Positions 31,150 to 60,160 of a DNA stretch of 64,000 nt are shown here, piece by piece; position 1 is the first letter of the stretch; each line of letters starts with the position of its first letter. The notes under the pieces were generated by a model. That model worked only from the letters and a program-made list of their open reading frames with translations, was not told the DNA's origin and ran no database searches. Source of the DNA: Cetorhinus maximus (Eukaryota); assembly GCF_964194155.1 (NCBI RefSeq), contig NC_135907.1:3038001-3102000 (forward strand). Direction: 5' to 3'. A program made the position numbers and the translations under genes.

Positions 31150-31556
31150 TATTTCCATCCATTGTTTTATCTCTGCCTTTTAGCCTATTTCAATTCCTTC
31201 CCCCCACCCCACCAGAGCTATCTGTACCTTGCTCGTCCTGCTTTCTACCCTTAATTAGCACATTCCTTAGATATCACCACCTTCAACACCTCTTTGGCCT
31301 TTTGTCTGTGACATCTTTTGGTTATCTCCACCTATCACTGGCCCTCTATCCAGCTCTACCTGTCCCACCCCCCCTTTAAACCAGCTTATATTTCACCTCT
31401 CTTCTCTATTTACTAAGTTCTGTTGAAGAGTCATACGGACTCGTAATGTTAACTATGTTCCTCTCCGCAGATGCTGTCAGACCTGCTGAGTTTTTCCAGG
31501 TATTTTTTATTTTTGTTTTGGATTTCCAGCATCCGCAGTTTTTTTGCTTTTATCTT
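31150..31556 (+). mobile_element. Penelope-like terminal fragment with a degenerate hammerhead (31416-31454)
   Basis: Reverse-complement homologue of 59807-60160; AGTT CTGTTGA A GAGTC ATACG GACTC GTAAT GTT AACT. Confidence 0.7.
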
Positions 31557-32422
31557 CAAAAATTAATTCATTGGTTGTAAAACACATTAGCACATCTTAA
31601 GATGCAAGTTCTTTCTTTCCTCAGGATCCTACAGATTAGTGCCTTGTGGGTCTCATGCCACAGTTCCCCACACTCGGAGCTCTCAAACTCAGAGAGGTCA
31701 CTGATGGAATAGAGAAACTCAGAGGATACCTTAAGCTGGGCTGCTCACAGTTGGCGACGGACAGTCACAGAGAGGGTGAAATAAACAGGAGAAGGATCAT
31801 GCAGACATTAACTACAGCATGGACCAGTTTGGCCAAATGGCCTGTTCTGTAATTCTAATACATAAAAAGAAAACATATGAATGTCAAAGATCTGAAATAA
31901 AAAGACAAAATAGTGGAAATGTACAGAACGTTATCTGCAATGAAGTATCTCAGCCAAAACATCAATCTATTTTTAAAAAAAATTTTCAGGTGTTGACTGA
32001 CCGGCAACACTTTGTGTTTTTAATTACCAGGTACAAACTGGCAGTGACCACAGCCTGAGAGCAGGTCACCTGTCCTGTTTGCTGGAATGTCCTACTCTTT
32101 TCCCTAGGCAGATTAGCTGCAGTTCCCTCCTCCAGACCCCAATCCTGTGCTCGCTCTGATCATTGGGTGTGGACTGGATCCAATGATTGGCCACTTGGGT
32201 TGCAGTGTCCATGGAGATGCAGCCAACCCAAACCCCAACAAGGGGTCAGTCCCTTGTGATGAGGAGAACTGAATGGCAGAATCACAGGCATAGAACTGGT
32301 CTCCTATCATTTAGTGCTAACATGCAAACACCTTGCCTTCCAATTGTTTACTAATTCGACTGTAACTGACCACAGTGAACTTAACCTATAGGTTTATAAA
32401 TGTGTCAGGCCTTGTTGTTAAC

Positions 32423-32606
32423 CTTGTAGGCATTACGCTGGTTGGATTTCTCCTGCAGGACCCCCATGTCTTTCAGCTTCTGTCCGAGCGCGGTCAGCAT
32501 GAAAGCATAGATGTTTTCCAGACTGATCCCAGGAGTGCAGAGACATAGGCAGGACTTCTGAACATCGAGGACGGCCTGGTAGAGCTCAGACTGAGGCCCT
32601 GTGAAT
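32423..32606 (-). CDS. XPNPEP3: XPNPEP3 exon 8 (FTGPQSELYQAVLDVQKSC...NQRNAYK)
   Basis: gtatag| acceptor, |gttaac donor, 184 nt, in frame with both neighbours. Confidence 0.94.
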
Positions 32607-33742
32607 CTATACCAGAACAAATAAGTGTTAGTGTTTTCCAGCAGGACACCAGCAAGGTTTTACAAGCCACACAGCAGGCAGGTTCAAACTGTATACAATG
32701 TACTGCACAGAAACAGGGAGGAAGGAAGACAGGGAGAGATTGATAGGGCGAAATGAAGCAGGGTGGGAAGAGGCTCACCCAGAGTACAAACACTGACGTG
32801 GACCTGTTGGGTTGAACAGCCTTTTCTGTGCTGTAAATTCCACGTGAATTAAAAATAACTATGCTAATTAGCTGAAGTAAACAACCTTCCCACTCCTCCC
32901 CTGTAGGCACTGGTTAAGGCTGGGGTCTAGCCCCACAGACACCAGCAGCCACCTGTACCTCAGCATCATTCCTGTTTCCTCCCACACAGCAAACGTCTGC
33001 TATTCAACTGAATCGTGACAATAGTCTGATCCTATCCACACATACATTCCCTAGCTGGGGAAGTCACTGGTTAGGAAATGGGAATGGGAATCCTGGCTGG
33101 ATTTCCCTCTCCATTACCGAGTTTCACTGCCGGGTATGAGTGGCTCCATTGTTGTCTTGGCCGAGACCTCGTACTGAAGCTTCTCATCTGGACCCACTGA
33201 GTTTCAAACACGGGACTGTAGTTGCCAAATGATTCATTACACAGCTGGCAATTACCTTCTAATATGCATCATTAGACACCACAGGGCCAACTTTCCTGGG
33301 GTACACAGAAGCTGGTGTCACATTTCTGAGCCCTGGTTTCCTCTATGGTGCAGGCAAGCACTAAGGACTCATATTAGGTGCAGTAATGAGGGTTGAGATA
33401 TGCCTGACTTTCAGGCAGAAATCTCTTCTCTGGAGAAGCTCTCCAGAAATACCCGTCAGCTGAGGGCTCCTGAGAAATGATTTTTTTTGTTTGGTCACAA
33501 AACAATTGTTTAAGTGGCAGTGTAAAGGAACAAGATTTAGCGACTGCAATAAATGTAGCGCCAAAGAATTGTTTATATCAGGGCACGTGTTTTGATGCAG
33601 AGGCCCTTGAGCAGCTGCTGCAGGGGGTAGAGCAGAGAAGGGAGGCCCTGTTTCCCAGCCAGGAAGGAAGGCTGTGAAGGCAGGGTAAGACAAGGTTGAG
33701 GCCTTTAATAGCACACAACCAAGGATATGGAAGCAAGGCCAG

Positions 33743-34500
33743 AGGCAGAATTCTATGTCCCCCCACCAGCAGAATTGCAGGGGGGGGGACACACCATAAA
33801 ATTCCTTGAATGGCCTTCCCTTCAGGCTCCTGCCCACCCCAACCTCTCCAAGATTTTACGGAGCAATGGATGAGGTCTAGGCCAGCCCACCTGTCCTTGC
33901 TCCAATTGAGATCCTTGAGTGACCAATTAATGACTAAGGGCTGTTTCTCACCCAGCCTCACTTTTCAGATTGGCGGGGGGGGGGTTTAGGGGCAGGGGGA
34001 AGCCCAAAAAGTGACCCTGCTCAGGCCTTGGGCGGGAAGGGGGTGAGGGGACACCCCTCTGTCAACAGCCTCCATTTAACATAGGGGGGCGCCCCCCCGC
34101 AACCCCACCCCACCCAAAGATCTGGGCCCCTGTGGATGCTCCCTTCCCTCCGGCCTCTCCACCAACACCCCGCCTCTCTCTCTGTCCAACCCTTCCTGGG
34201 CCTCACCGAGAGCCCCACACTTACCTGGTTCTGGACTCTGGCACTGCTTGTAGTCCCAGTCCTATCCACTGCAGTTTCTGGCACTGCTGGGGCTAGAGAG
34301 CTGTTGGCCAATCCGATTGGCCAGCAACGCCCTGAGGCGACACTCCCTCACAGCTGAGGGGAGGAAGTGACATCGCCATCAATTAACATTTGATGGAGTG
34401 TTAAATGGTTGCAGAGCTGCCAGTATCAACGGAGATGTGTTCATTGTCAACTCTTCTGATGCCAGGAAGGGAAACCCCACCATCATAAAAATCCTGGCCC
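33743..34500. mobile_element. GC-rich non-autonomous element with imperfect inverted termini
   Basis: Starts aggcagaattct, ends aaaatcctggccc; internal inverted motifs; family unassigned. Confidence 0.4.
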
Positions 34501-35214
34501 AGAAGTTTAAGAACCTCAACAGGAGGAATAAAGTACATATGAACATACGAATTAGGAGCAGGCCCCTTGAGCCTGCTCCACCATTCAATAAGATAATGGC
34601 TGATCTGATTGTAACCTCCACTCCACACTCCTGCCTACCCTCGATAACCAGTAAATAACTGTGAACCATTATACAAAGTTTAAATGGATCGTCAGCCATG
34701 TTGTAACTCAGTTAACCTGGCATCATGTAAATAAAGTCTTGCATTCATATAGCATCTTTCACAACCTCAAGATGTCCCGAGGCACTTTACAGCCAATGAA
34801 ATGCTTTTTGAAGTGGATTCACTGCTGAGATATGGCAACCAATTCATTCATAGCAAAGTTCCACAAATGGCAATGGTCATGATCAGATAATCTGCTTTAG
34901 TGGTGTTGGTGGAGGGATTCATATTGCCCAGAACCAGGGGAAACTCCCCCTGCTCTTATTCTGAATGGTACCATGGGATCATTACCATTCACCCGCGATA
35001 GCAAGTGGGACAACAGTTTAATGTCTCATACTAAGGATGGCAACTCCGACCAAGTAGTACTGAAGCATCAGTCTGGATTTTGTGCTAGAGTCTCTGTAGT
35101 AGACATTAAGGATGGTATGTACGACAAAGTGACATTGAACAGAAGATATGCTACACCTACATTTCAGAACGTCAATCCACATTTGAGGAAATTACATGCC
35201 AATAATCTAGTGGT

Positions 35215-35770
35215 TCTTCCAGTGTGAGGAGGTGTCCTCACCTGAGTGTTGCAGACTGGCACATGCCAAAGTGCAGGACTATGTGCTGCGGGACACACTG
35301 AAGCTTGGGGCAGCTGCTGCCAACAGGGTGACCAGCTCTTGGGGAATAAATTAGGGTTCCTGGGCCGACGCATGCACAAAAATAAACTGGCTGACACATG
35401 AGGAAAAGAATAGTGGGCAACACATGCGTAGACACAAAGACTGGCCAACGCAGCTGAATTCCAGGACAAAACGCAACCCGGGAAGACATGACCCGAGACA
35501 CAGGATAAAAGGCTTAATTATAGGACGGTCCCAGAAAATGCTGGGGGGGCTTGGTCACTCTGACCACAAAGGCACAATGGGGAAAGCCTACTGTCTAAGG
35601 CCCTTCCTGCATAGTACAGCAAGGGGCTGGAACCCTTGTAAAAGCTCTCAGGCTGTATGTAGGAGGAAAATGTTGTAACGTTATGTAATGTAGGTGCAAC
35701 TACTGCATTAAATGATCAGTTTGTACCACTTCTATTGTATTGTATATATCTTCAAACATTTAATGAATGC
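35215..35770 (+). mobile_element. LINE (L1/Tx1-like) ORF2 C-terminus and 3' UTR fragment, split by a hAT MITE
   Basis: Reads ECCRLAHAKVQDYVLRDTLKLGAAAA / KAQWGKPTV* across the insertion; clade assignment is from memory. Confidence 0.5.
35324..35562. mobile_element. hAT-type MITE (239 bp)
   Basis: TIRs cagggtgacca / tggtcactctg; 8-bp flanks gctgccaa and accacaaa fit a decayed TSD gccgcaaa. Confidence 0.65.
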
Positions 35771-36278
35771 AGTACAAATCTGAAATAAAAAGAGAGTTCT
35801 GGTGAGAGGACAGGAGAGCTGCCGGGCCATTACCAACCCCGGATTTGTTGTTCCCTTTCCAGCCTTCTATCCCAGCTCCGGGCAATGACTCCTCAAGTGC
35901 CCCTTTTACTGTGGGTGACCCTGTCACTGCAAGTACCAGGTTACTCCTGTTTTTTGGCACTCTGTGATTCCACACTGATGTCACTTTCAATACCTTTCTG
36001 CACAGATGGGAGCAATGATGGAACCCGTAGCCGCCCATTCATCTGCCTGTATGCTTGTCTAACCTTATGTCTTCACAGGAACACCAGGGGAATCAGCTGT
36101 CAAATCCTCCACAGAAGCTGTCATCGGGCACCCATCACAACTCAAAGACTTGGTCTGCAGCAGTCCAGTTACACCCGCTCACCTACTTCCACCTCCATTT
36201 CATCCTCTGACTCTACATCGTCTCAGCTCACTTTCTGCTTAAACCCCCATGCATGACTCTAGCTTAGACTATTCCAAT

Positions 36279-37417
36279 CAGGGCAGACGGTGCAAACACT
36301 GAGGCCCGGGGTCTGGGGGTGGGGCGACCCCCCAAGCCCGGGCTCGGTGTTTCAAACCGTTTTTTTTTGTCGTCCACGCTGAGCAGCCAGAGCTGCAAAC
36401 CTGAAAGTCCGGCTGAAAAATACACAGATCTGTCAGGCTGAGGGTTCCAATATTTTTGAAGCCACTCTGTCAGTGTCGGGTCGGGTCAATTTCACTAGCT
36501 GCTGCTGCTGCTGCTTCCGACCTTCGGGCAGCTTTGCAATTCCAATTTTTTCTTTTTTTAAAAGCCTGCCAGGAAATCACGAAGCTGCTCAAAGGTGAGA
36601 AGCAGCAGCAGCAGCTGAGAGTGTTTCTGCCTGAAAAATGGTCAGTCACATCCCTGTAATCTTAACAAACAATTAGATGTAGGTGGTGGGAGGTGGTGGG
36701 GGGGGCGGGGGGGAAGACAAATCCTACATTTATACATCACCTTTCACAATGTCTGAAATCGCTTTACAGCCAATTAAGTACTGTATTTTTGAGTTGTGGT
36801 CACTGGTATAATGTAGGCAATTTGATCGAATGGCAGAGCAAGCTCAAGGGGCCAAATGGCTTACCCCTGCTCATAATACCTATGTTCGTAAGTCATTCTG
36901 GATGGTTGAGATGAGCTGGGCTCGATGGCCTTTGTCATCCACAATTATCCTGTGAACAGAGGGTGGAACCATGGCCGGAGTTCTGTTTAATTTGTTGCTA
37001 ATGAAAGTTTACTGAGAGCAGGCTTTGTGGGCAGAGATTGCCAGGGCAGGAATGCATAATGGGTTCATAGTGAATCAGTCACCTGTTTTACACTGCACAT
37101 GATTCTCAAGAGTCTTTTCTATTGACTTCAATCTTGTCCTTTTGTCTACTTATCTATTATCCCACTCTATCTTGGTGCTTTTTATGAGTTTTTTGAAGTA
37201 TTGAAATATTGTGATAAAGTTGTGTTGCATAACAGATATTGAAAATATATTGTAGTGAGAAGCAGCGATCAGCAGAGTCTTCAGATCACAAAATAGATAC
37301 AATTGTGAACCAGTCAGTCTTTGTTCTCTGGCCTCTTAAAAGTTAGTTGCACAGAGACACACGAGGGCCTGGGAGCAGGAGAAGCACCGGGGCCCATGAT
37401 TTCTGCTCCTGGCCCTG
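36279..37417. mobile_element. hAT-type non-autonomous DNA transposon (~1.1 kb) inserted in an L2-like LINE fragment (~36060-37900)
   Basis: Termini cagggc...gccctg; TSD attccaat (36271-36278) / atttccaat (37418-37426); host LINE text resumes on the far side. Confidence 0.65.
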
Positions 37418-38034
37418 ATTTCCAATGCTCGCTGGGGTGACCTCCCACCTTACACCCTCTGTAAACTTGAGCTCATCCAAAACTCTGCTGCCCTAATCCG
37501 AATGCAAGTTCTGTTCACCCATCATCCCTACATTGGCTGCCAATCCTGATGCACTGTGATTCTAAAATTCTCAAACCCCTCCATGGCCCTGCCCCTTCCT
37601 ATTTCTGTAATCTCCATCCGGCCCACAACCCTCCAACATTTTTGTGCTCCTTCGATTCTAGCCTCCTGCATCTGATTTTCATCACACCAAGACTGGCGAT
37701 CAGGTGTCCAGGCCCTAAGCTCTGCATTTCCCTTCTGAAACCTCTCTGCCTCTTTCCCCACCTTTAAGATGCTCCTTAAAACCTACCTCTTGTCCTAATA
37801 TCTCCTTATGTGGCTTGGTGTCAAATTTTGAAAGCTCTGAAACACTTTGGGACATTTTGCAATGTTCTAGGGGCTATACAGAAGCAAACTGATGTTCTGT
37901 AAAAATTATGAGGGAAGCACTGAAATGGAATCAGGGCTGGAACAGGAAAAACAAAAGAGGAGTAATAGGGCACTTGTAGTAACCGCAACACCCACAGCAA
38001 CGGGGATTTACATGGCCGGGGAGGGGAAGTACGC

Positions 38035-38279
38035 AGCAATGAGGAGATGTACAGCAATGAGGAGATGTACAGCAATGAGGAGATGTACAGCAATGAGGAG
38101 ACGTACAGCAATGAGGAGACGTACAGCAATGAGGAGACGTACAGCAATGAGGAGACGTACAGCAATGAGGAGACGTACAGCAATGAGGAGATGTACAGCA
38201 ATGAGGAGACGTACAGCAATGAGGAGACGTACAGCAATGTGGAGATGTACAGCAATGAGGAGACGTACAGCAATGAGGA
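38035..38279. repeat. 18-bp minisatellite agcaatgaggaga[c/t]gtac, ~13.5 copies
   Basis: Directly visible; produces repetitive ORFs in several frames. Confidence 0.95.
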
Positions 38280-38894
38280 AACACAGAGTGCCCGCAGTAA
38301 CAAAAAGTATTCGCAATCACCTGTCAGTTCTGTGTCACATCCCATAAAATGGTAATTACCTTCCCTTTGCCATATGCAGATCAGATGGGGAGACCGGGGT
38401 TTGCTCTCAAGTTGCTGCTGCTCTACAGGGTGTCTGTCAATAATTGGGTTTCCACAGTTGGCCCCAGTGTGTGGGGAAAGACCTCATTCCAGTAACATTC
38501 CTGGAACCTGGATGTGCACTGATGTTGGGTACGGTCAGGTTCAGGATTGGCCCATTTGCTTGAAGTGTCTGTTGCTGCTCAGTGTCCAGGGTAACTCGAG
38601 AAACTGCTAGCTGGCAGGTTAGTGGAGGATGGCTGGGGCTCACTGAAACATACCCTAACATGAGGGTATCCCTTTTAGAAGAGAGGGAAGAAAACAAGTG
38701 GGAGGTGACGGGCGTGCGGCCAGGTGGGGGTGGGGCTGTCAGATGTGCAGCTGGGGAGGGTGAGGGTGGCGGGTGTGCGGCTTGGGATGGTGGGGGTGGT
38801 GGCTGTACAGCTGGGTGGGGGTGGCGGGTGTGCGGCCGTGGAGGGTGGGGCCGGGGACATGGGGTGGGGGCTGAATCCAAACTCAGTGTCTCAC

Positions 38895-38980
38895 CTTCCA
38901 TTGACAGGCCAGACCCGAGTGACATCACTGGCATAGCCGGAATACTCACAGCCTCCATCCAATAAGACCATCTCCCCATC
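38895..38980 (-). CDS. XPNPEP3: XPNPEP3 exon 7 ([29 protein letters not shown])
   Basis: ttaccag| acceptor, |gtgaga donor, 86 nt; two metal-binding Asp residues. Confidence 0.97.
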
Positions 38981-39369
38981 CTGGTAAAAGAATGAAGTCA
39001 CTGAGTTAATACAGGAACAACAGGAGGCTAGTCAGCACCTCCAGCCCTTTTCGCTGTTCAACTATACTACGGCTGATCCATATCCTATCTACATTTACCC
39101 ACCTTGGTTCTATAACCCTAATACCCTTGCCTAACAAAAATCTTTCACTCACAGTTTTAAAATTGTCAATTGACCCACTGCCTCACGAGCTTTTTGGGGG
39201 AGAGATTTCCAGATTTCTGTGCCCCTCTGAATGAAGAAATGCTTCCTGACATCATTTCTGTATGGCCTGGTTCTAACTTTAAGATTAGGCCCCCTTAATG
39301 TAGACTCCTCCATCAGAGGAAATACTTCCTTTGTATCTCCTTTTTATCCGTATTTACAATTCCTCTCGA

Positions 39370-39660: not shown

Positions 39661-40377
39661 ACACCGCCATAATTCCTTTAATCATGTTCGAATCTTCAAT
39701 CGATTAACCCTTAATCTTCTACACTGTACTCAAGGGAATACCAGTCTAGTTTATGCAACCTATTCGATTACCATAACAACAACTTTTATTTATATAGTAC
39801 CTTCGATGTAGAAACCCCAAGGGGTTTCACAGGAGCGTTATCAAACAAATTTTGACACTGAACTTCATGAGAAGATACTAGGACAGGTGACAAAAGTTTG
39901 ATCAAAGAGGTAGGTTTTAAGGAAAAGAGAAAAAAAGGAAAAAGAGTTGGGCTTGGGAGCAGCAGTCAAAATCTCTGTGCAAATGGACGCAGGGAAACTC
40001 AAGTTACATCAAAGGATAGAGTTGTGGAGTAAGGAAGGGAGCTGCCAGCCCAGGAGCCATCAAAACCTTTTCTTAAGGATATCACCAGAAATTCCTCAAT
40101 ATGTGACCACCTTCTTCCGCATGCACCTGTATATAACAAGGGATGACTCTGTTAACAGGATCTACGCCGGTTGGTTAAGTCAAAACTTCGCAGAGCCTTT
40201 CCTTGCTGAGAGCTTATTGACTTTGTTCAGTGTCAACACTCCTCACCCACACCCAGTGTCCCAGCTATCCCCTATTTATGTGTGTTCAAATACCCATCAC
40301 CTGTTTCCCTTAACAATGTAACTGACATTAACAAACCTTAATGTAATTGATAAGACATCGACAGGCAACAGTCTTAC

Positions 40378-40491
40378 CTTAATCATCTGGTTATTTTTCA
40401 CATAATGCAGAGTATTGGAGCGATTGCCTCCAGCTACTACTGGAGGGTAGGCCAGGAGGTCTGCCCCATGAGCTCGACACTCAAAGTCAAA
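40378..40491 (-). CDS. XPNPEP3: XPNPEP3 exon 6 ([38 protein letters not shown])
   Basis: ttgcag| acceptor, |gtaaga donor, 114 nt. Confidence 0.97.
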
Positions 40492-41193
40492 CTGCAATTG
40501 AAAAATATTATGGAGTCACAGGTTATGAAAGACCACTCACCAAACATATATCAGGATTTTAACTCTGTACTTAAGTACAACAAACAGACAGCAAACATTT
40601 ACCTTGAAGCAAAGAGAAAAAAATAAGTTAAATAGTGGATTTTAAGTTGGCACTTTATCAAATACTAATTCTGTGGATTAATGATAATGATAATGCTTAC
40701 ACAATGTTAGTGGATTAAAAGGCTGATGGAATGATTCAACAATGACTGACATAGGTGACCAAAACTCATGATAGAGCTCCTCTTGTTTGAATCAGAATAT
40801 CACTGAGCCATGGATAGGGTTAAAAACAAATTTTAAAATCTTGGCAGTCAAAATTCAATCATCCATTTGCAACCGACAATTATCAGTTAATCCTTTACCA
40901 CTTAAAAACTGTAGTAAATTAATTTAATGGCGGTGGAAGCAGATTCAATAGTGACTTTCAAAAGGGAATTGGATAAATATGTGAAGGGGAATCATTTTGC
41001 AGGGTTTATGGGGCAAGAGGAGGCGAGTGAGATTAATTGAATGGTTCTAACAAAGAGGACCAGACACGAAAGGCCTCTCTCTGTGCTGTATGAATATATG
41101 ATTCGGAAGATTTGATATGTCACCCTCACTTGTTCCGTGTACACCCGGCTGCTACCGCTCATAAAAACATCCACAAAAAACTTTGCTGCTTAC

Positions 41194-43454: not shown

Positions 43455-45075
43455 AGGAACATAGGAAACAAGAGGCCATTTGGCCTCTCAAGCCTGCTCC
43501 ACCATTCAACTAGATCATGGCTGATCTTGTATCTCAACGTCATCTTCCTGCATTATCTCCGTATGCTTGATATCTTTAATATCTAGAAATCTATCGATCT
43601 CTGTCTGGAACATGCTCAATGAATGGGCTTCCACAGCCCTCTAGGGTAGAGATTTCCAAAGATTCACCACCCTCTGAGTGAAGAAATTCCTCCTCATCTC
43701 AGTCCTGAATGACCTGCCCCTTATTCTGAGACTGTGCGCCCTGGTTCTTGAGCCCCCAGCCAGGGGAAACATCCTTCCTGCATCTACTCTGTCGAGCTCT
43801 GTAAGAATTTTGTATGGTTCAGTGAGATCGCTTATCATTCTTCTAAATTCTAGAGAATACAGGCCCAGTCTCCTCAATCTCTCCTCATAGGACAATACCG
43901 CCAACCCAGGGATCAGTCTGGTGAATCTTCGTTGCACTTCCTCTATGGCAAATATATGTTTCCTTAGATAAGGAGACCAAAACTGTACACAATACTCCAG
44001 ATGTAGTCTCACTTAGGCTCTATACAATTGCACAAATGCTTCTTTACTCCTGTGCTCAAATCCTCTTGCAATAAAGGTCAACATACCATTTGCCTTCCTA
44101 ATTGCTTGCTGCATGCTGGCTCTCAGTGACTCATGAACAATGACACCCAGGTCCCTTTGGACATCAACGCTTCCCAATCTCTCACCAGTTAAGAAATACT
44201 CTGCATTTCTGTGGATAACTTCACATTTTTCCACGTTATATTCCATCTGCTCTGTTCTTGCTCACACACTTAGCCTGCAAAATCATCTTGAAGCCTCTTT
44301 GCATCCTCCTCACAACCCCATTCCCACCTAGTTTTGCGTTATCAGCAAACTTGGAGATATATTTGATCCCCGCATCTAAATCATTAAAATAGGTTGAATA
44401 GCTGGGGCCCAAGCACTGATCCTTGTGTTATCCTGCAAATCTGAGAATAACCCATTTATTCCTACTCTTGTTTTCTGTCTGTTGACTAATTCTGAACACA
44501 TGCCAGCATATTACTCCCAATCCCACCTGCTCTAATTTTGTTTACTAACCTCCTATGTGGGACCTTATCGAAAGCCTTCTTAAAATCCAAATACACCACA
44601 TTTACCGGTTCCCCCTTATCTATTCTGCTTCTCACATTCTCAAAAAACTCCAACATGATTTTCTTTTAGACATGATGGGCTGAATGGCCTCTTTCTGTGC
44701 CTAACTTTGCTGTGGTTCAATGTTTGTCAAACATGTTTTCCTTTTCACAAATTCATGTTGATTCTGCCCAATCGTCTCATTATTTTCTAAGTGTGCAGCT
44801 ATCACATCCTTTATTATAGATTCTAGCATTTTCCCCACTACTGATGTCAGGCTAACAGGTCTGTAGTTCCCTGTTTTCTCTCTCTCTCCCCTTTCTCAAA
44901 TAGCAGGGTTACATTTGCTACCTTCCAATCTGCAGGAACCATTCCAGAAACTATAGAAATTTGAAAGATGACCACCAACACATCCACTGTATCTACAGCC
45001 ACCTCTTTCAACACTCTGGGATACAGATCATCAACTCCAGGTGATTTATCAACTTTCAGTCCCATTAATTTCTCC
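43455..45075 (-). mobile_element. CR1 LINE fragment
   Basis: ORFs 43641..44012, 44013..44246 and 44847..45251 give CR1 ORF2 pieces (KSPGVDDLYPRVLKE, VPADWKVANVT, HLEYCVQFWSP). Confidence 0.92.
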
Positions 45076-45459: not shown

Positions 45460-47520
45460 GGCTGATCAGTTTAATCTTGGTGGTGGGAAAGATTTTAGGA
45501 ATGATCATTTGGAACAAAATTAACAGTCACATGGGCAAAAGCATTAGAGACAGTGCAGAAAAGCTTCAACAGGATGGCTCCAGGGATGAGGAAATTCAAT
45601 TACGTAGAAATATTGGAGAAGTTTGGACTGTTCTCCTTGGAGAAGATCGAGAGGAGATCTGATAGAGGTGTTCAAAATCATGAGGGGTCTGGCCAGAGCA
45701 GATAGGGAGAAACTGTTCCCATTGGTGCAAGGAGCGAGAACAAAAGGGCACAGATTTAAGGCAATTGACAAGAGAAGCAATGGAGACATGGGGATAAACT
45801 TCTACACGCAGCGAGTGGTCAAGATCTGGAATGCACTGCCTGAATGTGGGGGAAGCAGACTCAATCCAGGTTTCAAAAGGGAATTGGATTATTGTCCGAA
45901 AGAAAATAAAAATCAGGATTATGGGGAAATGGAAGGGGAATGGCACTCAGTGAACTGCCAGCACGAATAAGATGGACTGTCTATGCTGGAATCATGCTAT
46001 GATCCTAAATGTGGATTAATTAAGGAAAATCAGCAGGGATTTGTTAAGAGCAAATGGTGTTTAACTTGCTTGAATTTTCTGATGAAGTGAGAGAGGGTTT
46101 GTGAGAATAATGTGGTTGATGTGGTGTACATGGACTTTTAAAAAGCATTTGGTAAAGTGCCACATAACAGGCTTGTCAGCAAAGTTAGGGCTCATGGAAT
46201 AAAAGGGAGAGTAGTAGCATGGTTACGAAAATGGCTGAGTGACAGGAAACAGACAGTAGTGGTGACTGGTTGTTTTTCGACTGGAGGAAAGTATATAGTG
46301 GGATTCCCCAGGGGCCAGTGTTTGGATTCCCTGCCTTTCTTGATCTATATTAATGACTTAGACATGATTTCAAGTTCGTGAATAGCGCAAAACATGGAAG
46401 TGTTGTGAACTGTGAGGAAGATAGTGATAAACCTCAACATGACATAGACAGGCTGGTGGAATGGGTGGACAAGTGGCAGATGAAATTGAATGCAGAGATG
46501 TCTGAAGTGATTCATTTTGGTAGGAAGAATGAGGAAAGGCTAGATAAAATAAAGAGTATATTCCTAAAGCGAGTGCAGGAGGGAGGAACCTTGGGGTATA
46601 TGTGAACAAATCATTGAAGGCGGCAGGGCAGTTGAGTAAGTGGCTAATAAGGCACCTGGGATCCTATATATAGAAGCATAGAATACAAAAGCAAGGAAGC
46701 TATGTTAAACCTGTATAAAACACTGGTCTGGCCTCGACTAGAGTATTGTGTCCAGTTCTAAGCACCGCACTTTATGATGAATGTAATGGCGTTAGAACGC
46801 AGAAGAGATTCACAAGAATGGTTCCACAGTTCAGTTACATGCATAAATAGGAGAATATGGGGATTTTCTTCTTGGAGAGAGATGGTTAAGAGGAGATTTG
46901 TTAAAAGTGCTCTAAAATTGAGGGGTCTGGACAGAGTAGTTAGGGAGAATAAAAGCAAAAAACTGCGGATGCTGGAAATCCAAAACAAAAACAAAAACAC
47001 CTGGAAAAACTCAGTAGGTCTGGCAGCATCTGTGGAGAGGAACACAGTTAACGTTTCGAGTCCGCGTGACTCTTCAGCAGAACAGACTCTTCTGTTGAAG
47101 AGTCACGCGGACTCGAAACGTTAACTGTGTTCCTCTCCACAGATGCTGCCAGACCTGCTGAGTTTTTCCAGGTACTTTTGTTTTTGTTTTTGATAGGGAG
47201 AAACTGTTTCCATTGACAGAAGAAGATTTGAGAAACAGAGGATATCGATTTATGGTGATTGGCAAAAGAAGCAACGGTAGCATGAGGGAAAACTTTTTCA
47301 GGCAGTGAGTGATTAGGACTGGAATGCACTCCCTGAGTGTGGTGGAGGCAGATTCAATTGAAACCTCTGAAAGAGAATTGGATAACTATCTGAAGAGAAA
47401 ATATCTGCAGGACTATGGCGATAAGATGGGTGAGTGGGACTAGGTGAGTTGCTCTTGCAGGGAGCCAGCATGGACACAGCAGGCTGAATGGCTTTCTCTG
47501 TGCTTGTAACCTTTCTATGA
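45460..47520 (+). mobile_element. Nested, decayed CR1 LINE fragments
   Basis: VPHNRLVSKVRAHGI, WVDKWQMKLN and RGDLIEVFKIMRG segments. Confidence 0.88.
46950..47193. mobile_element. Penelope-like fold-back insertion with two head-to-head hammerhead-like motifs
   Basis: ~100-bp inverted arms 46981-47082/47090-47192 with a 7-bp spacer; TSD tagggagaa at 46941-46949 and 47194-47202 in the host CR1. Confidence 0.8.
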
Positions 47521-47649
47521 TCTTATATTTGTGGCATCTAGTTTTGGGGTCCTCTCCAAGTGGAAACTGGAAAAAATGAAGATTGATCCTCTCTTCAACA
47601 GAAACACCATTCCTATAAGCCCTGCTCCCCATACTCTGTTATAACCTAC

Positions 47650-48299: not shown

Positions 48300-50040
48300 C
48301 ATACAGCACTAAAATAGGACATTCAGCCCATCATGGTTGTCTTGGTTCGCTGAAAGAGCGATGCAATGAGTCCTGCCCCCCTGCTCTTTCCCCATAATCC
48401 TGCAAAATTTTCCCATCAAGTATTTATCCAATTCCCTTGTGAAAGTTACTACTGAGTCTGCTTCGAGCACCCTTTCAGCTAGTGCAGTCTAAAAGTATCT
48501 CGTCTTTCCCCATGGCTTTTTGGTCAATTATCTTAAATCTGTGTGCTCCAGTTATTGACCCCTTGCTAATAGAAACAGTTTCTCCCTATCTGCTCTATCA
48601 AAGCCCCACATAATTTTGGAGACCTCTATCAAATCTTCTCTTAACCTCTCTGCTCAAAGGAGGATAATCTCAGATTCTTCCATCTCTCCATATAATTAAA
48701 ATCCCTCATCCCTGGTACCATTCTGGTAAATATCCTCTGCAGCCTATACAAGACTTAACATCCTTAATAAAGCGGGGTGCCCAGAATTTGACCCAATCCC
48801 CCAACTGAGGTCTAACCAGTGATTTAGAAAGGTTTAGAATAACCCTCTTGCTTTTGTACTCGATGTCTCTGCTTTTAAAGCCAATGTTCCCCTCGCCTTT
48901 CTTAACAGATTGATAAACTTGTCCTGCCACCTTCAAAGATTTTTTACTAGTTTGAATTCTGCCTGGAGTATTCCAGATTAACCTTTTCCATGCCAAAAAC
49001 CATCTTCCGAGCCTCTGTAAAATCACAACTCAGGTACTTGCTTTCTAAGTTGAAATTCCAGGCCTCTCCAGTATCGATAGATACTGCCCTGTCCATATGG
49101 ACATGTTTTCAGTCATGTTTAGGTCTGCACAGACCCTTCTGTCACTCCTCAGGAAAGAGGGCAGCAAGGTGCTCAACGATTGCTAACTCTTTGCCTTCCT
49201 GCAGCACCACCCATAAGAAGGAAGAGGGCTTACAATGCTTTACATTAAGGAGGAAAAACATTGCATTATGGAGGGAAAAAAGGGCTACGACTAGGGTGGA
49301 CCTTTATTCCTTTCATCATCTTGACCTGCCACCTTCAAAGGGTGGGTATGTGAGCCCCAGGTCTTTCTGTTCCTGCAATCCACTGGAAAATCGCTGCATC
49401 TGGTTTATATTGCCACTCCTCATCTGCCTTCCAGAATGCATCACTTCACAATTCCATTACATTTCATCTGCCATTTCACCAGAGTTACATCTCCCTGAAG
49501 TCTGCTACTTTCCTCCTCACTATGTTCTACATTTCCAACTATGTATCATCTGCAAACTTTGAAGTTATCCCTTGGTACCCAAGTCCAGGCCAGTAATATA
49601 TATCAAAAAGAGCAGTGGTCCGAATACTGACCCCCTGGGAGACAATATTATACGCTCCCTCCAGTTTGGAAAACAGCTCTTCACTATTACTCTCTTTTTT
49701 CAGTCTTGTGGACAATTTTGTGTCCACACTGCCACTGCCCCTTTAATTTCATGGGCTTCAATTTTGTTAACAAATCTATCATGTGGTACTTTATCAAACA
49801 CCTTTTGAAAGTCCACATCCACATTGACTGCACTACCTTTATCAATCCTGTCCATTGTTTCATGGAAGAATTCAATCAAGTTAGTCCGAGACTACTGGCC
49901 TTTAACAAATTCATGTCAGCTGTCATTTATTAACCTGTTCTTCCAAATGACAACGAATTTTGTCTCAGATTATTGTCTCTAGAAAATTCACATCACAGAC
50001 ATTAGGCTAACTGGCCGGTACCTTATCTCGCCCCTTTTTT
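48300..50040 (-). mobile_element. Decayed CR1 LINE fragment
   Basis: ORF 48706..49026 (LVRPQLGDWVKFWAP) and ORF 49539..49727 (SKFADDT). Confidence 0.85.
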
Positions 50041-53052: not shown

Positions 53053-53581
53053 ACGGCATGGAATGCATTCTCAGGTCCTCATAGGTAAAATCACCCGCAG
53101 CGCCACACAAACTGATCTTAGTTATGAGCAGTTGTTGAGTAGCGGCAGATTACATTAATGTTTTAAAATTTGTCACAGAAAGATCAGGAAATTTACTGTT
53201 AAATTAAAATCCTAGCATGAACGTACGTCAAAAAGTAGCCTCGCGTCATTAGAAACATTGATGGGAATGAATCAACGGGAATGGCTACCAGCAAATGCAA
53301 ATCGCTTCTGTTCATTTAATCATCCGTGTAAAACATTTACGGGTGGGGTGTGGGATCTGGATTGCTCCAGGCGCCTTGCCCAGAGCACTCCCAGGTCAGT
53401 AACACTGCAGATCCGGCGTAGAGTTCCCTCTACTCAGCCCCTGCAGTGGAGGCTAACCTCCAGCCTCTAAATGGTGATCCTGGTCTGACATTTCCATTCC
53501 CCATAGAAACAATTCCTGTGGCCGTGCTGAATGAGGCTGTCACTCCAGATCCCACATGCACGAAAAGCAGACGTTACTGAC

Positions 53582-53989
53582 CTTTAAACCTCTGCACATA
53601 CTGTCCAAACTCCTCAGTAGCGTAGGCCTCGTCCACCCCTGTGAGGGAAACTGCACCATCTACCCCAGAGCGTGGGCCGTCCCATAGCTCTCGGTTCTGG
53701 TTCCTCCTTGGCACAAATAAGACAGTCTTGTGGGAAGGCAGGCTCTTTCCGGGAATACTGTGGAGCAGCAGAATGCTGTCCGGCTCCTGAAAGCCGCAGA
53801 GGTAAAGGAAGTTTGTGTTCTGGTGGAAGGGGAAAGGGATGTCGTTCGTCATGTAATAAGTGGGGTGGGACAGCAGAATGACGGCATGGTCAGAAGTCCC
53901 CAAGGTCTCGGCTTCTTTGTGGATCAGGCTCAGCAGTTTGTGTCGACGCAGGGCATATTCCACCTGCGACAACCCGGGTGTCACCTCGC
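53582..53989 (-). CDS. XPNPEP3: XPNPEP3 exon 3 ([16 protein letters not shown]...WDGPRSG...QRFK), aminopeptidase P N-terminal domain
   Basis: cttacag| acceptor, |gtcagt donor, 408 nt; overlaps ORF 53574..53984. Confidence 0.97.
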
Positions 53990-55697
53990 CTGTAAGTGAT
54001 GCAGAAATACAGTCACACTCTCTGAAATACCACAGCTTCTTGATGTGCTCATCACAGCATCAGAAAATGGTAGGATTCCAAAGCAGGTGAGAGAGGGAAG
54101 GAGGTTCGACCACTCTTCTCTCCCAGATGCTGACCAAGTGGGTTTCCAGTGTTATTTCACATTCCTGGAATTAACATTGTTGCTTATCATTGAGCACTTT
54201 TTCTGACTAATCCAAACCCTATATAAATCAGCTGCAACAGAGATGAATAGCATTGATGGATTTAACAACATATTTATATAGCATCTTTAATGTAATAAAA
54301 CGTCCCAAGGTGCTTCACAGGAGCATTAAAAGCAAAGTCAGACACCGAGCCACATAAGGAGATATTTGATCAGATGACCAAAAGCTTGGTCAAAGAGATA
54401 GGTTTTAAGGGGTGCCTTTAAGGTGAAAAGTGAGGTAGAGAGGCATAGGGAGGGAATTCCAGAGCTTGGGGCCCAGGCATCTGATGGCATGGCCACCAAC
54501 GGTACAGCAATTAGAATTGAGGATGTACAAGAGACCAGAGTTAGAGCAGCTCAGCTACCTCAGAGGGTTGTGGGTTTGGAGGAAATTACAGAGGTCGGGA
54601 GGGGTAAAAGCTGAAGATAGATATGCACATAAGGAAGAAAGGAACCAAAGGTTATGCTGAAGACGGGTGGGAGGAGGCCTGTGTGGAGCATAAACACAGA
54701 CATGGAACCTGTTGGGCCGAGTGGCCTTTTCTGTGCTGTACATTCAAGAAAAACTTTCATTTATATAGCGCCTTTAAAACAATACCTTATTCCATTTGTT
54801 TTTTGTTAACCGCTTCTATCTCTGTGCTCGAGATTTTCTTTCTTTTTTGTTGGGACGAACCACTTTTAAAAGCATAATTTTGTCTCTCAAGTTTTCCCTC
54901 AGCGTTGGGGACAGACAGACAATCTTGTTCTCTGCTGCAGTGGCATAGCACTGAGGAGGTCAGTGCCAACAGCTCCCTGGTGCCTGGATTTATTCTTACA
55001 GCATTGTGTGATGGAATCATTTAATACAGGGCTATAGAAGCATTGCATTTGTAGATGACATTGGTGAACATAATGGACCCTCAAAGGCTTGCAGTGGCTA
55101 GAGTCTTCAGCTTTGATCTCACAAAGTTTTATCGATTCCCTCCGCTGGGTGGGAAATCAGGGTCTAGTGCACCAGAAGCAGAAACCCAGCAATGCCTTAA
55201 ATCCATGTTGCCATTATTAGCATATATTCAAAGGGAACTGGCAAAAAAACTGGAGACAAGGCGAGGTTTATTTGTTTAAACACAATGAGTTGTTGTGATC
55301 TGGAATGCGCTGCCTGAAAGGGTGTGGAAGCAGATTCAATAGGAACTTTCAAAAGAGAATGCTCGAAGGGGCTTATGGGAAAAGGGCAGGGAAGTGGGAC
55401 TAACTGGACAGCTCCTTCAAAGAACCAACAAAGACATGCTGGGCTGAATGACCTCCTTCTGTGCTGTCTCATCCCATGAGCTTGATGCCAACAGATTGCA
55501 CTGTCCTTAATTTCTGCCAGAAAGGCCACAGCACTAAGACAGGCCTTTCCAAATCTCCAAACCCACAACACTGAATCCAGCAAGGAAGAAATATAAACAC
55601 GAGAACCAAATGCGGACTGGTTTGCTTAGGTTTGGAAGCTGCTTATTGGACAAATACGCATTCATCAAATCACTCACTTTTTCATTTAACTCCGTAC

Positions 55698-55814
55698 CTG
55701 TTTTAAGGAGGTGGGGGTGTGTGAAAGGGCTTGGCTGCCCGAGGTAGCGAGGGGGCAGGTTCTTCTGTCCAGAAGGTATTACGGAAAATTTCTTCCGGAA
55801 GCAGATATCACATC
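55698..55814 (-). CDS. XPNPEP3: XPNPEP3 exon 2 (GCDICFRKKFSVIPSGQKNLPPRYLGQPSPFTHPHLLKTG)
   Basis: ttcttcag| acceptor, |gtacgg donor, 117 nt; RYLGQPSPFTHPHLL motif. Confidence 0.95.
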
Positions 55815-57459
55815 CTGAAGAATGGAAAGTGCAGAGGACCATTAAATCAGCCTCTTCCAGAGGAAACGGAACGCAGAATTAAAATGATGAAGGGTTCAGC
55901 GATTCTACAGTCACACCTTGCCTGAACAAATTCATTGCTAAAGCTGTTTCTAATCCAAAACCTTTTTGGTCCAACAACAAAATTCAGCAATAGCCCAGAA
56001 GTTACTCTCAAAATCCATCCTGGTTATAGGGGTGAGGGGACTGGCAAATGATCTATTATCTAACTCTAATACAAGCAGAGGTGGACCTGTTTGTCCCAGA
56101 AGGGCACAGGAATGTGCCAAAAATACAGCGCCACTGATCTAGTCCAAGTATCTAATTCCAAAGAAGAGTCATAGGGACTCGAAATGTTAACTCTGTTTTT
56201 CTCTCTCCACAGACGCTGCCAGGCCTACTGAGTTTTTCCAGCACTTTGTTTTTATACCACAGATCTCTTCACAGGGCACTTGGAAAATCTCCCGATTTCC
56301 CTGTGGCTGGTCCACCCCTGTAAAGAAGCTCCTGGTTCAGCAAATTAAGTCTGCACTTCCATCACCTCCAAGTTCCCCTCCAAATCACACATATAGAATG
56401 ACACCATCCTGGCTTGGATACACAGCACCATTATCATTGGGACAAAATCCTGAAAATCTCTCCCTAAAAGTATTGTGGGACCGCAGTTCGTCTTCTCCAC
56501 CAGAGTCAGCGGTGCCATTTTTTTGAACAAGAGCTCCCAACAGCTCCACCACCCCGATGCCCTTTAGGGAGGGAAATCTGCCATCCTTACCTGGTCTGGC
56601 CAACACATGACTCCAGACCCACAACAATGCGGTTGACTCTTAACTACCCTCTGAAATGGTCAAGCCAGCCTCTCAGTTCAACGGGAATTAGGGATGGGAA
56701 ACAAATGTTGGCCTCGTCAGCGATGCCCATATCCCATGAAAGAGTAAAAAACACACAATTGATCGGTGATACATTTTTTCATAGGAATGCAAAGGATCCT
56801 GCAGTTGGAAATGAATAATAAAGAAAGGCTCTAGTGATACTTTAATAGGGAAATCAAGTTGGTGAGGCCAGAAAGAAAATCTGCAGGCCATATGCACACA
56901 CCTTCCAGTGGAAACCATGGGGCAAATTGTCTCGTTCCGACAAAGGGTCGTGAACCTGAAACATTAACTGTTTCTCTCTCTCTCTCTCCACAGAGGCTGG
57001 TTATTTCCAGCATTTTCTGTTCTTGTACAAAATTCTCTTCTTCAGTTGCATGGCAAAGGGGTTTCAAGAGAGAGAGAGAGAATAAGGTCAAAAAAATGGT
57101 CATTTGGATGCTTAAAAAAATCTCCTGTGCACCTTTCCGAAGGAGAGTTGTACTGGGCTCGGAACATTAACTCTCTTTCTCTCCCCACAGATGCTGCCAG
57201 GCCTGAGACTTTTCAGCACTTTGTTTTTGATTCCTGCACACCTTGTCCTTCCCTCCTCACACATTTACAGGGTTGGGTGCAAACTTTCATATTCATTCCC
57301 CCCTCCCCCCCCCCAAGTAAGTCTACCTTTAGTTCAAAAGTCCTTAATTCAGTAGCTGGACACTTGAGCCACCGACATGACATTGCAAGTGTCTTTGTGA
57401 GAGTGACCAGCTCATAAATAAATAAATATGCTCCCTCCCCACAATCTGGATTCTCTAAC

Positions 57460-57517
57460 CTTGAATCCTGAGTTTCTTTAAAGCTGAGCTGGTGATTCTT
57501 AATGTTTTAGCAAACAT
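57460..57517 (-). CDS. XPNPEP3: XPNPEP3 probable coding exon 1 (MFAKTLRITSSALKKLRIQG), mitochondrial-presequence-like
   Basis: ATG-initiated segment near the promoter ending in the phase-1 donor (CAAG|gttaga) that exon 2 requires; basic, Ser/Thr-rich, no acidic residues; inferred from phase and composition, not homology. Confidence 0.7.
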
Positions 57518-57599
57518 AATTAACTGTCAGTCAGCATTATTATTATTATTATTATTATTTACAAACGTTATGGACACAGCCCACGTTTAGCTCTGATTC

Positions 57600-58076
57600 C
57601 CACATTAGTGGCCAAATAGTGACTTCCCTCAAGGGCCGTTCTCAGCCTCGTCGCATCATGATGACGTCACGGAGCGCTTCCCGCCCGCCCATTGGTCAGG
57701 AATTATGCCATCCTCGAACACTATTGGTTGCTCGGAAGGCCCCCCCCCGGGGGGGTCAGCTGCCGTTGCCGAGCCTGTGGGTCGTCCCGGGCGATGCCTG
57801 TCATTAAAAACTCCCCCGGGCAGCTCTGTTTGCGGAAAAGCCTCAAATCGCCCGTTTGTTGGCACCAAATAAAAAAAAAAACAAAGGCGCGATACCCAGA
57901 GGCGTCTTCGAGAGTTTCAGACGGGATCGCCTCCATATTCAAAACCAGGCAACGGACGGGGCGACAATTTCCAGAAAGTTCCAGAAGGCACCGCCAGCGG
58001 GGTGAACGGTGCGCATGCGTGTGGAGTGGGGGGAGGAGAGGAGAGGAGAGTGGTAGCGCGCAGTAACTCAGTCAGC
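57600..58076. promoter_or_regulatory. Bidirectional CpG-rich promoter shared by XPNPEP3 and ST13
   Basis: Start codons ~560 bp apart and divergent; CRE TGACGTCA 57662-57669; GC boxes ~57680-57690; CCAAT (minus strand) 57691-57695 and 57723-57727; NRF1-like TGCGCATGCG 58010-58019. Confidence 0.85.
57968..57987. promoter_or_regulatory. Heat-shock element with four alternating nGAAn units
   Basis: tTTCcaGAAagTTCcaGAAg is a perfect HSF consensus, ~90 bp upstream of the ATG of the Hsp70 co-chaperone ST13. Confidence 0.85.
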
Positions 58077-58186
58077 ATGGACCCACAGAAACTTCGGGAC
58101 CTCAGCGCCTTTGTGCAGCTTTGCAAAGGGAACCCGGCCATACTGCACATGCCCGAGCTGCGCTTCTTCAGAGAATGGCTGGAAAG
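58077..58186 (+). CDS. ST13: ST13 (Hsc70-interacting protein, Hip) coding exon 1 (MDPQKLRDLSAFVQLCKGNPAILHMPELRFFREWLE); gene continues beyond the window
   Basis: Hip N-terminal dimerisation-domain sequence; 110 nt ending AG|gtaaag; head-to-head with XPNPEP3 as in human. Confidence 0.95.
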
Positions 58187-58232
58187 GTAAAGGTTTGGGG
58201 GAGGGGAGAACATTGGGAAGGGAATTAATAGA

Positions 58233-59175
58233 GGGGGGGGGGGGGAGGGGTCAGATGTGAGGCGGGGGGGGAGGGGGTCAGATGTGAGGCGGGGGGGAGA
58301 GGGGGTCAGATGTGAGGCGGGGGGGAGAGGGGGTCAGATGTGAGGCGGGGGGGGAGAGGGGGTCAGATGTGAGGCGGGGGGGAGAGGGGGTCAGATGTGA
58401 GGCGGGGGGGGAGAGGGGGTCAGATGTGAGGCGGGGGGGAGAGGGGGTCAGATGTGAGGCGGGGGGGAGAGGGGGTCAGATGTGAGGCGGGGGGGGAGAG
58501 GGGGTCAGATGTGAGGCGGGGGGGAGAGGGGGTCAGATGTGAGGCGGGGGGGGAGAGGGGGTCAGATGTGAGGCGGGGGTCAGATGTGAGGCGGGGGGGG
58601 AGAGGGGGTCAGATGTGAGGCTGGGGGGAGGGGGTCAGATGTGAGGCTGGGGGGGAGGGGGTCAGATGTGAGGCTGGGGGGGAGGGGGTCAGATGTGAGG
58701 CGGGGGGGGAGGGGGTCAGATGTGAGGCGGGGGGGGGAGGGGGTCAGATGTGAGGCGGGGGGGAGAGGGTCAGATGTGAGGCGGGGGGGAGGGGGGTCAG
58801 ATGTGAGGCGGGGGGGAGGGGGTCAGATGTGAGGCAGGGTTGGGGAGGGGGTCACATGTGAGGCAGGGGGGAGGGGTCAGGGGTGAGGGTAGTAAGGGGT
58901 GGGGGGGTCAGGGAGATGGGGAGGGGTGGGGGAGTCAGGGAGATGGGGGAGGGGTTGGGGGGTCAGGGAGATGGGGGAGGGGTTGGGGGGTCAGGGAGAT
59001 GGGGGAGGGGTGGGGGTGTCAGGGAGATGGGGAGGGGTGGGGGTGTCAGGGAGATGGGGAGGGGTGGGGGTGTCAGGGAGATGGGGAGGGGTGGGGGTGT
59101 CAGGGAGATGGGGAGGGGTGGGGGTGTCAGGGAGATGGGGGAGGGGTAGGGGTGTCAGGGAGATGGGGAGGGGTG
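58233..59175. repeat. Two adjacent G-rich minisatellites in ST13 intron 1 (~28-bp gggggtcagatgtgaggcgggggggaga; ~27-bp gggagatggggaggggtgggggtgtca)
   Basis: Directly visible tandem arrays starting ~45 bp after the exon 1 donor. Confidence 0.95.
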
Positions 59176-59806
59176 GTAAGGGGTGGGGGCTTGGGGAGGG
59201 GAGATGGTACGGGGTGGGAAAGAGGGGGGATGGGAGCTAGGGGGTTGTGAGGAGGGGGTTCAAGGGGAGGGGAGTGGGGTAGGGGGGTCGCGGGGTGGTG
59301 GTTCAAGGGGTGGGTTGCGTTGAGGGGAGGGGATCGGGGGTTAGAGAGTAAGGAAGAGTGGAGGGGCGTCGGGGAGGGTTTGGAGGGGAAGGTGGTGTGG
59401 GAAGTGGTGGGGTGGGGTGTGGTGTTTAATCTCATCAAATGTTTTCTGAAAGTGAAGGTACACTTTTTTTAGTTCATGGGATGTGGGCATCACTGGAAAG
59501 GTTGGCATTTGTTGCCCATCCCCAAGTGCCCTTGAGAAGGAGGTGGTGAGCTGCCACCTTGAACCACTGCAGTCCATTTGGTGTAGGTACACCCACTGTT
59601 GCTAGGAAGTCCCAGGATTTTGACCCAATGACAGTGAAGGAATGATAATATAGTTCCAAGCCAGGATGGTGTGTGGCTTGGAGGGGCACTTCCAGTTGGT
59701 GGTGTTCCCATGTGTCTGCTGCCCTTGTCCTTCTGGATGGTAGAGGTCGTGGGTTTGGAAGATGCTGTCAAAGGAGTTGCTGCAGTGCATCTGGTAGATG
59801 GTGCAC

Positions 59807-60160
59807 TAAGATAAAAGCAAAATACTACAGATGCTGGAAATCTGAAACAAAAACAAAAATTGCTGGAAAAACTCAGCAGGTCTGACAGCATCTGCGGAGA
59901 GGAAGAGAGAGTTAATGTTTCGAGTCCGTATGACTCTTCATCAGAACAAAAGAGAAATAGAAATGTGGTGATATATAAGCTGTATAAGGGGGGTGGGATA
60001 GGTGGAGCTGGATCGAGGGCCAGTAATAGGTGGAGGCAAAGGAGAGATTGCCAAAGATGTCATAAACAAAGGGTCAAAGGGGTGTTGACGGTGGTGATAT
60101 TAGCTAATGGGTGTGCTAATGGTGACATTAAGGGTAGAAAGCAGGATGAGCAAGTGACAT
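59807..60160 (-). mobile_element. Penelope-like terminal fragment nested in another retroelement
   Basis: Same unit family as 31150-31556 and 46950-47193; host element text (~59470-60265) resumes after it. Confidence 0.7.
59911..59947 (-). ncRNA. Minimal type I hammerhead ribozyme motif (best-preserved core in the window)
   Basis: Minus strand GUU-CUGAUGA-A-GAGUC-AUACG-GACUC-GAAAC-AUU-AAC: canonical CUGAUGA and GAAA boxes, 5-bp stem II, 3-bp stem I; the G before the UH site is replaced by A, so activity is uncertain. Confidence 0.65.

Follow-up and report, generated by a model that had tools for sequence, protein, structure and literature searches.

We examined a 64,000-nucleotide (nt) stretch of the Cetorhinus maximus genome (contig NC_135907.1, positions 3,038,001 to 3,102,000; hereafter the window), in which an initial annotation made from the letters alone had marked seven minimal hammerhead-ribozyme motifs and a remnant near position 273. 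We conclude, on sequence evidence, that these motifs are the pseudo-long terminal repeat (pLTR) ends of an autonomous Penelope-like element encoding a reverse transcriptase (RT) and a GIY-YIG-type endonuclease, one very abundant known kind of element. Our preferred account, which we hold with good confidence, is that the motifs are pLTR ends of a Neptune-type element and that its short hammerhead units are likely dead by-products of RT starting inside the RNA and running off the 5′ end. This is an ordinary Penelope-like family of very high abundance, and most of its biology is known.

Hammerhead motifs on the ends of a Penelope-like element

The motif family is real and above chance. A profile search with the unit returned 12 matches in the window and 104 in 999,400 bases (100 stretches placed at round coordinates across the genome), while the same bases reversed returned none. 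The density of about 100 copies per Mb extrapolates to roughly 4 × 10^5 copies in the 4.0-Gb assembly, and exact 34-letter patterns gave thousands of matches genome-wide compared with zero for reversed controls. The coordinates and strands of the seven motifs and the remnant were borne out, each with the shared tail downstream, as was the assignment of the motifs to minimal type I hammerheads with an AACGUU palindrome, by sequence and column counts. An Rfam scan of the window returned no hammerhead family match; its MIR5048 match is merely the fold-back at 47 kb.

Stems I and II, the extra base after A9, the GAAA, the palindromic 15.2-16.2 pair and the UH cut site are all present. In 38 unselected copies from the random sample, 93.4% of cells were paired compared with 2-50% for slid controls, and one pair had changed on both sides (U-A to C-G through U-G). 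Changes between lineages also keep or improve pairing, from C·A to U-A in stem I, and from A-U to G·U and U-A via U·G to C-G in stem II; the loop varies freely along the ladder of lineages described below and the cut-site base alternates between U and C. The annotated picture of a paired stem II with a variable loop stands; stem covariation is statistically weak. Monomers of two window copies folded stem II, and cofolding gave no clean hammerhead dimer. An alternative core register (U3 U4 G5 A6) was rejected, as stem II would not close at GAAA.

The initial annotation had attributed the motifs to Penelope, and we found the autonomous elements ending in the same unit for which it had suggested a search. 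When 30 genomic matches of the 47-kb copy were compared, several had over 1.5 kb of upstream sequence in common, and extension of seven matches led into RT and endonuclease frames, read from translations. Among 20 loci from a search with the 5′ part of the open reading frame (ORF), about half had the same hammerhead and tail immediately before the ORF. Extension of twelve loci revealed partial tandems in which each repeat has its own hammerhead (the spacing in the locus L118 is 3,316 nt), giving a 3.3-kb element of pLTR-ORF-pLTR structure with hammerhead and tail on both sides of the RT-endonuclease ORF. Ten copies are 96-97.5% identical to their own consensus, the endonuclease stop codon lies 366 nt 5′ of the core base C3, and one copy with C at core position 6 (L380) has an unbroken 694-residue frame from the RT to the C terminus. 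The translations contain RT motifs, a C-X4-C-XX-C linker and a VY-YIG endonuclease motif. Pfam RVT_1 matches were weak and below the cut-off in two of three ORF pieces, none of the three pieces searched matched Pfam GIY-YIG, and a search of solved structures with the ORF returned no match. The Neptune type is defined by a CX2-5CxxC linker between RT and endonuclease (PMC8557442). By this motif the element is of the Neptune type, its clade being read from the linker alone.

The pLTR-ORF junctions contain a 30-codon frame that begins 20 nt beyond the cut site and is in phase with the main ORF; its first part corresponds to window positions 47141-47194. A TAA parts it from the main ORF in eight of nine junctions (L039, L042, L044, L045, L048-L050, L054 and L055), and the ninth has a frameshift. 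The frame may be passed by read-through or by re-initiation at the next ATG, or may be a regulatory upstream frame. A spliceosomal acceptor before the first ATG was rejected, the AG being lost in the C6 lineages.

Core position 6 across lineages

The conserved A6 of the minimal type I hammerhead is kept in older lineages and absent in younger ones. Among 345 motif-covering copies, a pool enriched for pattern-selected copies, position 6 was U in 168, A in 140, C in 20, G in 7 and a gap in 10, and the other catalytic bases were mostly 93-98% constant, CpG sites excepted. The random sample (n = 71) divided by positions 6 and 7 into AA (29), UU (14), AU (10), CC (8), CU (3) and others (7). Exact patterns matched 2,835 times genome-wide for CUGAAGA, 3,315 for CUGAUGA, 9,964 for CUGUUGA and 14,630 for CUGC(U/C)GA, counts in which the C6 pattern differs in looseness and exact matching favors younger lineages. 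A tree built without the hammerhead (71 of 86 rows, with U6 thinned to 32 of 70 and 15 rows dropped in which the motif was not located) was ladder-like, running A6A7, A6U7, U6U7, C6U7, C6C7, with tips shortening towards C6. Divergence in bins made on flanking bases was 0.083, 0.081, 0.050, 0.046, 0.096 and 0.036, the value of 0.096 coming from a mixed bin; 33 copies fell in no bin.

In the tandem copies that bear the ORF, position 6 is U, and we take U6 and C6, both present on ORF-linked copies, to be lineage states and not decay. Judged by these patterns, the changes at position 6 are successive master lineages rather than random decay. The U6 in the motif at 47089-47125, previously counted as decay, is its one core difference and the normal state of its lineage. 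Nor is the ancestral consensus alone intact, as had been proposed: the copy at 59911 has every catalytic base, and the canonical A6 patterns have 6,150 exact matches in the genome. A literature search, mostly of open papers and without Repbase, found nothing on a natural U6 hammerhead lineage, though the supplement of PMC4209133 may list variants, and nothing on this element family or on Penelope 5′ ends piled at the hammerhead edge.

Copy ends and the origin of the short units

We numbered positions with C3 of the hammerhead as 0, on which scale the predicted cut leaves a 5′ end at +31. Ends were taken from 120 copies, a set in which the upstream side was not selected: four exact tail patterns, with 35,036 matches in total, were each represented by their first 30 matches on contig 1. 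A wider set held 239 of 506 distinct copies, leaving out those obtained with hammerhead or ORF queries, those not covering the tail anchor and those with tails below 80% identity. The 3′ ends of the 120 copies formed two clusters about 35 nt apart, 54 at +88..106 and 55 at +122..142, with 11 elsewhere. Frangieh et al. 2024 (PMC11167929) attributed the optional tail of a Penelope element to RT starting at two internal sites, and the bimodal 3′ ends match such a two-site tail.

The 5′ ends of the 120 copies fell at -80 or beyond in 44, within -79..-11 in 11, within -10..0 in 36 and within +1..+40 in 29. Half of the 36 ends in -10..0 lay at -4/-3, and the peak in this set held 27 ends compared with 0.8 expected. 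Among the 239 copies, 31 ends lay at -4/-3 and 41 at -5..-1, compared with 36 over the 69 positions of -79..-11. The -4/-3 peak is present in old and young types, C6 copies included, and several of these starts are directly bordered by clean target duplications. The A of TTAGTT or TCAGTT is at position -4, in a context that we take to fit the initiator (Inr) consensus. Every one of the five core classes has a TATA-like box 29-31 nt before the start point; in the oldest class it reads TATAAAT or a close variant, at -31, and in later ones TATATTT, at -29/-30. TATA- and Inr-like motifs are likewise reported in the rotifer Pen2a pLTR (PMC3846280). We conclude that the -4/-3 point is the likely RNA start and the peak the likely mark of RT run-off there. 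The cut site at +29..31 showed no excess of 5′ ends in the 239 copies (5 of 52 internal ends, 3.7 expected, P = 0.32). A candidate fossil of self-cleavage, ends at +31, had stood at 5 of 29 internal ends in the 120 copies (2.2 expected, P = 0.07) and was rejected when it weakened to that value in the wider set. A pattern designed to enrich cut-site starts gave mostly spacing variants and no clear peak by eye.

These ends suggest how the short units could arise. The RNA would start at -4/-3, placing the hammerhead at its opening, and RT would initiate internally, at a point 95-135 nt 3′ of the hammerhead, and run off the RNA 5′ end. Priming in the upstream pLTR would yield copies of about 100 or 135 nt, priming in the downstream pLTR would yield long, variably truncated copies, and copying onto both target strands would give head-to-head pairs with one arm tailed. 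Short copies would be mostly silent because the TATA-like box is left behind. The ribozyme would cut solely as a dimer or with protein help, and strong cleavage is probably not needed for copying, since the successful younger lineages swapped A6 for U and then C with the fold kept. It is conceivable, though we would not bet on it, that the insertions record the whole RNA cycle and that the element was selected to keep the fold while detuning catalysis from A6 to U6 to C6, because a cut so near the cap (35 nt) would destroy the message of the element itself. If so, the younger ribozymes would no longer cut freely but would serve as binding structures or as switches gated by protein or metal.

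Internal priming by the element is the most likely source of the short units, as by-products. Within the U6 class, short and long copies have one consensus, and all core classes include short units. These leave out the TATA-like box. Of 65 copies that begin at -10 or later, 27 are paired with an inverted partner. Measured lengths were 97-114 nt (19 of 36) or 130-153 nt (17 of 36), not the 130-170 nt first estimated. The proposal that several copies start just 5′ of the core holds, the start being non-random; the copies at 31416 and 59911 are longer.

Several observations weigh against this account. Stem covariation did not rise above shuffles, with 42-59 of 500 by three measures and 357 of 500 by two others, and the tree is rooted by midpoint and branch lengths, without an outgroup. 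Of the 239 copies, 52 begin inside +1..+42, which requires extra trimming or stalling. Copies starting at the hammerhead edge make up 41 of 98 with old tails and 19 of 141 with young ones; the old-tail lineage also has the better TATA box and the canonical A6. The TATA-like box of young lineages is imperfect, and the Drosophila Penelope promoter is described as internal and TATA-less (PMC2377424). Four presumed-RNA runs contain the element as contigs that show no starts, ends or strand, and no RNA 5′ end was seen in them. Finally, a nearest-neighbor test on all copies, a set containing query-selected and overlapping loci, found short copies clustered in U6 and C6 (9 and 2 of 300 shuffles). Random, tail-selected and core-pattern-selected loci showed no such clustering in four classes (72, 469, 120 and 500 of 500 shuffles as high).

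A possible but doubtful alternative is that box-bearing truncated copies, such as those at 31095-31556 and 59804-60154, make short RNAs that contain the complete priming signal and that the element protein copies in trans, the products being one-step non-autonomous copies from many sources without self-renewal. The box is kept in 91 of the 239 copies, which extend to -80 or further; a Penelope protein in vitro needed just a short RNA and no hammerhead cleavage (PMC11167929), and pLTRs act in trans in a rotifer (PMC3846280). However, groups of short copies with a common source were not seen in a small sample over a 91-nt region, and the copying in trans predicts the same ends as internal priming on the element RNA while adding a step without direct support. 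As a weaker form of the non-autonomous proposal, short RNAs from promoter-bearing truncated copies may be copied in trans.

We consider it improbable that the 5′ boundary is structural, with the polymerase copying from the downstream pLTR and stalling, folding back or joining by microhomology at the hammerhead edge without an RNA end there. Inverted partners are common, self-priming has been proposed for such palindromic junctions (PMC3846280), and ends are enriched across +1..+42 too. A polymerase moving 3′ to 5′ would, however, be expected to stall at the 3′ stem foot (+23 or +35) and not beyond it, many -4/-3 copies have clean target duplications and no inverted arm, and the distance to the TATA-like box is constant in all classes.

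Least probable is the initial suggestion of a distinct, self-propagating unit of 130-170 nt, a short interspersed element (SINE) or non-LTR retrozyme whose hammerhead would process it to linear or circular RNA. Defined 5′ and 3′ ends, target duplications, high copy number, the clustering in the first all-copies test and the proposed descent of animal retrozymes from pLTRs (bioRxiv 10.64898/2026.07.22.740005) would suit it, but this reading is largely refuted by the consensus shared with long U6 copies, the presence in all core classes of short units, which leave out the TATA-like box, the lack of clustering in unbiased sets, and starts before the hammerhead rather than at the cut site, with no +29..31 peak. 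In the window and the retrieved loci, rather than in a genome-wide array screen, units were single or head-to-head and no head-to-tail arrays were found save one short direct duplication (L409). This C6 insertion (G000:C1:8366650-8367070) is young and contains three hammerheads. Besides a head-to-head pair it has a direct duplication at a spacing of 69 nt, by which two ribozymes on one strand come near enough to dimerise.

Window copies and known systems

The copies and hammerheads in the window, assigned by sequence or, for arms and truncated copies, by sequence comparison (with profile matches for several of the short units and stubs), are as follows.

233..268, minus strand: inverted 36-nt arm belonging to the 268..396 insertion
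268..396, plus strand: short tailed unit with most of stem II deleted; 9-nt duplication CTTAAACCA
2144..2204, plus strand: stub from about +36, without hammerhead
2676..2782, plus strand: old stub from about +32, tail present
5989..6035, minus strand: tail-only stub
15768..15881, minus strand: old stub from about +29, tail present
31095..31556, plus strand: 5′-truncated Penelope copy (-341 to about +134) with 3′ untranslated region (UTR), promoter-like box, hammerhead and full tail; 86-90% to the L118 3′ end
31387..31393, plus strand: TATA-like box of putative function, 29 nt 5′ of the predicted RNA start at 31416
31416..31454, plus strand: minimal hammerhead, U6 lineage, broken at A13 and 15.2
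46949..47083, minus strand: tailed arm (-3 to +131) of a head-to-head short insertion
47047..47083, minus strand: hammerhead with C6, otherwise intact, inside the tailed arm
47089..47194, plus strand: tail-less arm (about -2 to +102) of the 47-kb head-to-head insertion
47089..47125, plus strand: hammerhead with U6-lineage core and paired stem II, in the tail-less arm
56153..56255, plus strand: old short unit, A6A7 type, core decayed at U4 and G5
56933..57028, plus strand: old short unit like the older short-loop family, core decayed at U4 and G8
57134..57233, plus strand: old short unit, core decayed at U4, A9 and A13; 6-nt duplication CACCTT
59804..60154, minus strand: 5′-truncated copy (about -200 to +135), A6U7 lineage
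59909..59947, minus strand: hammerhead with all catalytic bases, 16.2 changed

The four stubs between 2144 and 15881 had been missed. By comparison with the element, the copies at 31095-31556 and 59804-60154 are ordinary 5′-truncated element copies and not short units, reaching 341 and about 200 nt upstream into the element 3′ UTR; no part of the element ORF was found in the window by the same comparison. The first is flanked by a 7-nt target duplication (CTTCAAA), and a TATA-like box stands at the equivalent place in 90 of 116 long U6 copies. The motifs at 47047-47125 belong to a single insertion, head to head, and the pair is flanked by a 9-nt target duplication (TAGGGAGAA). A6 is absent from three of the seven window motifs, and in the hammerhead at 59909-59947 the change at 16.2, which breaks the palindrome, is the sole difference. 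The 56933-57028 unit and the loci L182, L060, L170, L071, L180 and L190 represent an older relative. Its loop is 3-4 nt long and its stem II is AGGTC/GACCT, with A-U at the normally fixed pair G10.1-C11.1 and G-C at the next.

A Pfam scan of 282 of 283 frames of at least 62 residues outside simple repeats identified exons of one host gene.

53577-54059, 40300-40515 and 32408-32659, minus strand: exons of an aminopeptidase P-type gene (Pfam AMP_N, Peptidase_M24)

The 47-kb pair is intronic because it lies between these exons; of the intronic placement first given to all seven motifs, this much is shown, the others being plausible or probable. Long G-rich minisatellite arrays of 18-30 nt units occupy about 19900-23300, 24900-27400, 37980-38340 and 58200-59300, and RT fragments of other retroelements, unrelated to this family by tblastn, lie at 44704-44895, 49703-49891 and 60703-61572. 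A 99-nt hairpin with long complementary arms at 36509-36607, its Rfam microRNA match far below the cut-off, is probably a small fold-back repeat.

Since 2014, truncated Penelope copies have been known to carry dispersed minimal hammerheads. What this analysis adds is the measured 5′-end peak, the conserved TATA-like spacing, the negative cut-site test and the ordered A-U-C series at position 6. The role of the hammerhead in Penelope-like elements has been in question, given weak cutting in vitro and its dispensability for insertion in one reconstituted system. The family makes that question directly testable, for it offers a dated natural core series (A6A7, A6U7, U6U7, C6U7, C6C7) in one background, each member able to spread, together with base-level predictions of where the RNA starts and of the two priming sites.

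The hammerheads described by Cervera and De la Pena 2014 (PMC4209133) are alike in being type I with no stem III beyond the palindromic 15.2-16.2 pair, in the extra base between A9 and 10.1, in G10.1-C11.1 and the 4-bp stem I, and in occurring in both pLTRs, mostly as dispersed single copies of truncated elements (described there as probably truncated Penelope copies) with some close opposite-strand pairs. Here, in contrast, stem II has 5 bp and the dominant young lineages have U6 or C6, whereas the only core variant named in the available text is U3-A8, and that text describes no fixed start at the hammerhead edge. Neptune-clade elements (PMC8557442, PMC3846280) share the single ORF with RT and C-terminal endonuclease, the CX2-5CxxC linker, partial tandems, inverted 5′-truncated copies and an optional 30-40 nt tail, and Pen2a of rotifers shares the promoter-like motifs noted above (PMC3846280); the present element differs in its very high copy number, about 4 × 10^5, and is placed in the clade by linker only. 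In the Anolis element PAc (PMC11167929), two internal RT starts also bound the tail; there both strands were extended, insertion in vitro proceeded without hammerhead cleavage and no RNA ends were found at the cut site. PAc is of the Poseidon clade, however, and its ORF starts inside the hammerhead, whereas here the first ATG is 20 nt past the cut site. Animal non-LTR retrozymes (PMC7229834; bioRxiv 10.64898/2026.07.22.740005) are alike in their type I hammerhead, non-coding nature and link to Penelope, but are described as head-to-tail repeats of 150-450 bp with typically canonical hammerheads and circles, unlike the single or head-to-head units here, which are identical to the element end. 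The A6C hammerhead of phage Bcep176 (PMC3088659, PMC7151607) also has C6, and is reported to be slow in magnesium and better in manganese; it is a single phage ribozyme, whereas here C6 and U6 are fixed in transposon lineages with more than 24,000 exact copies.

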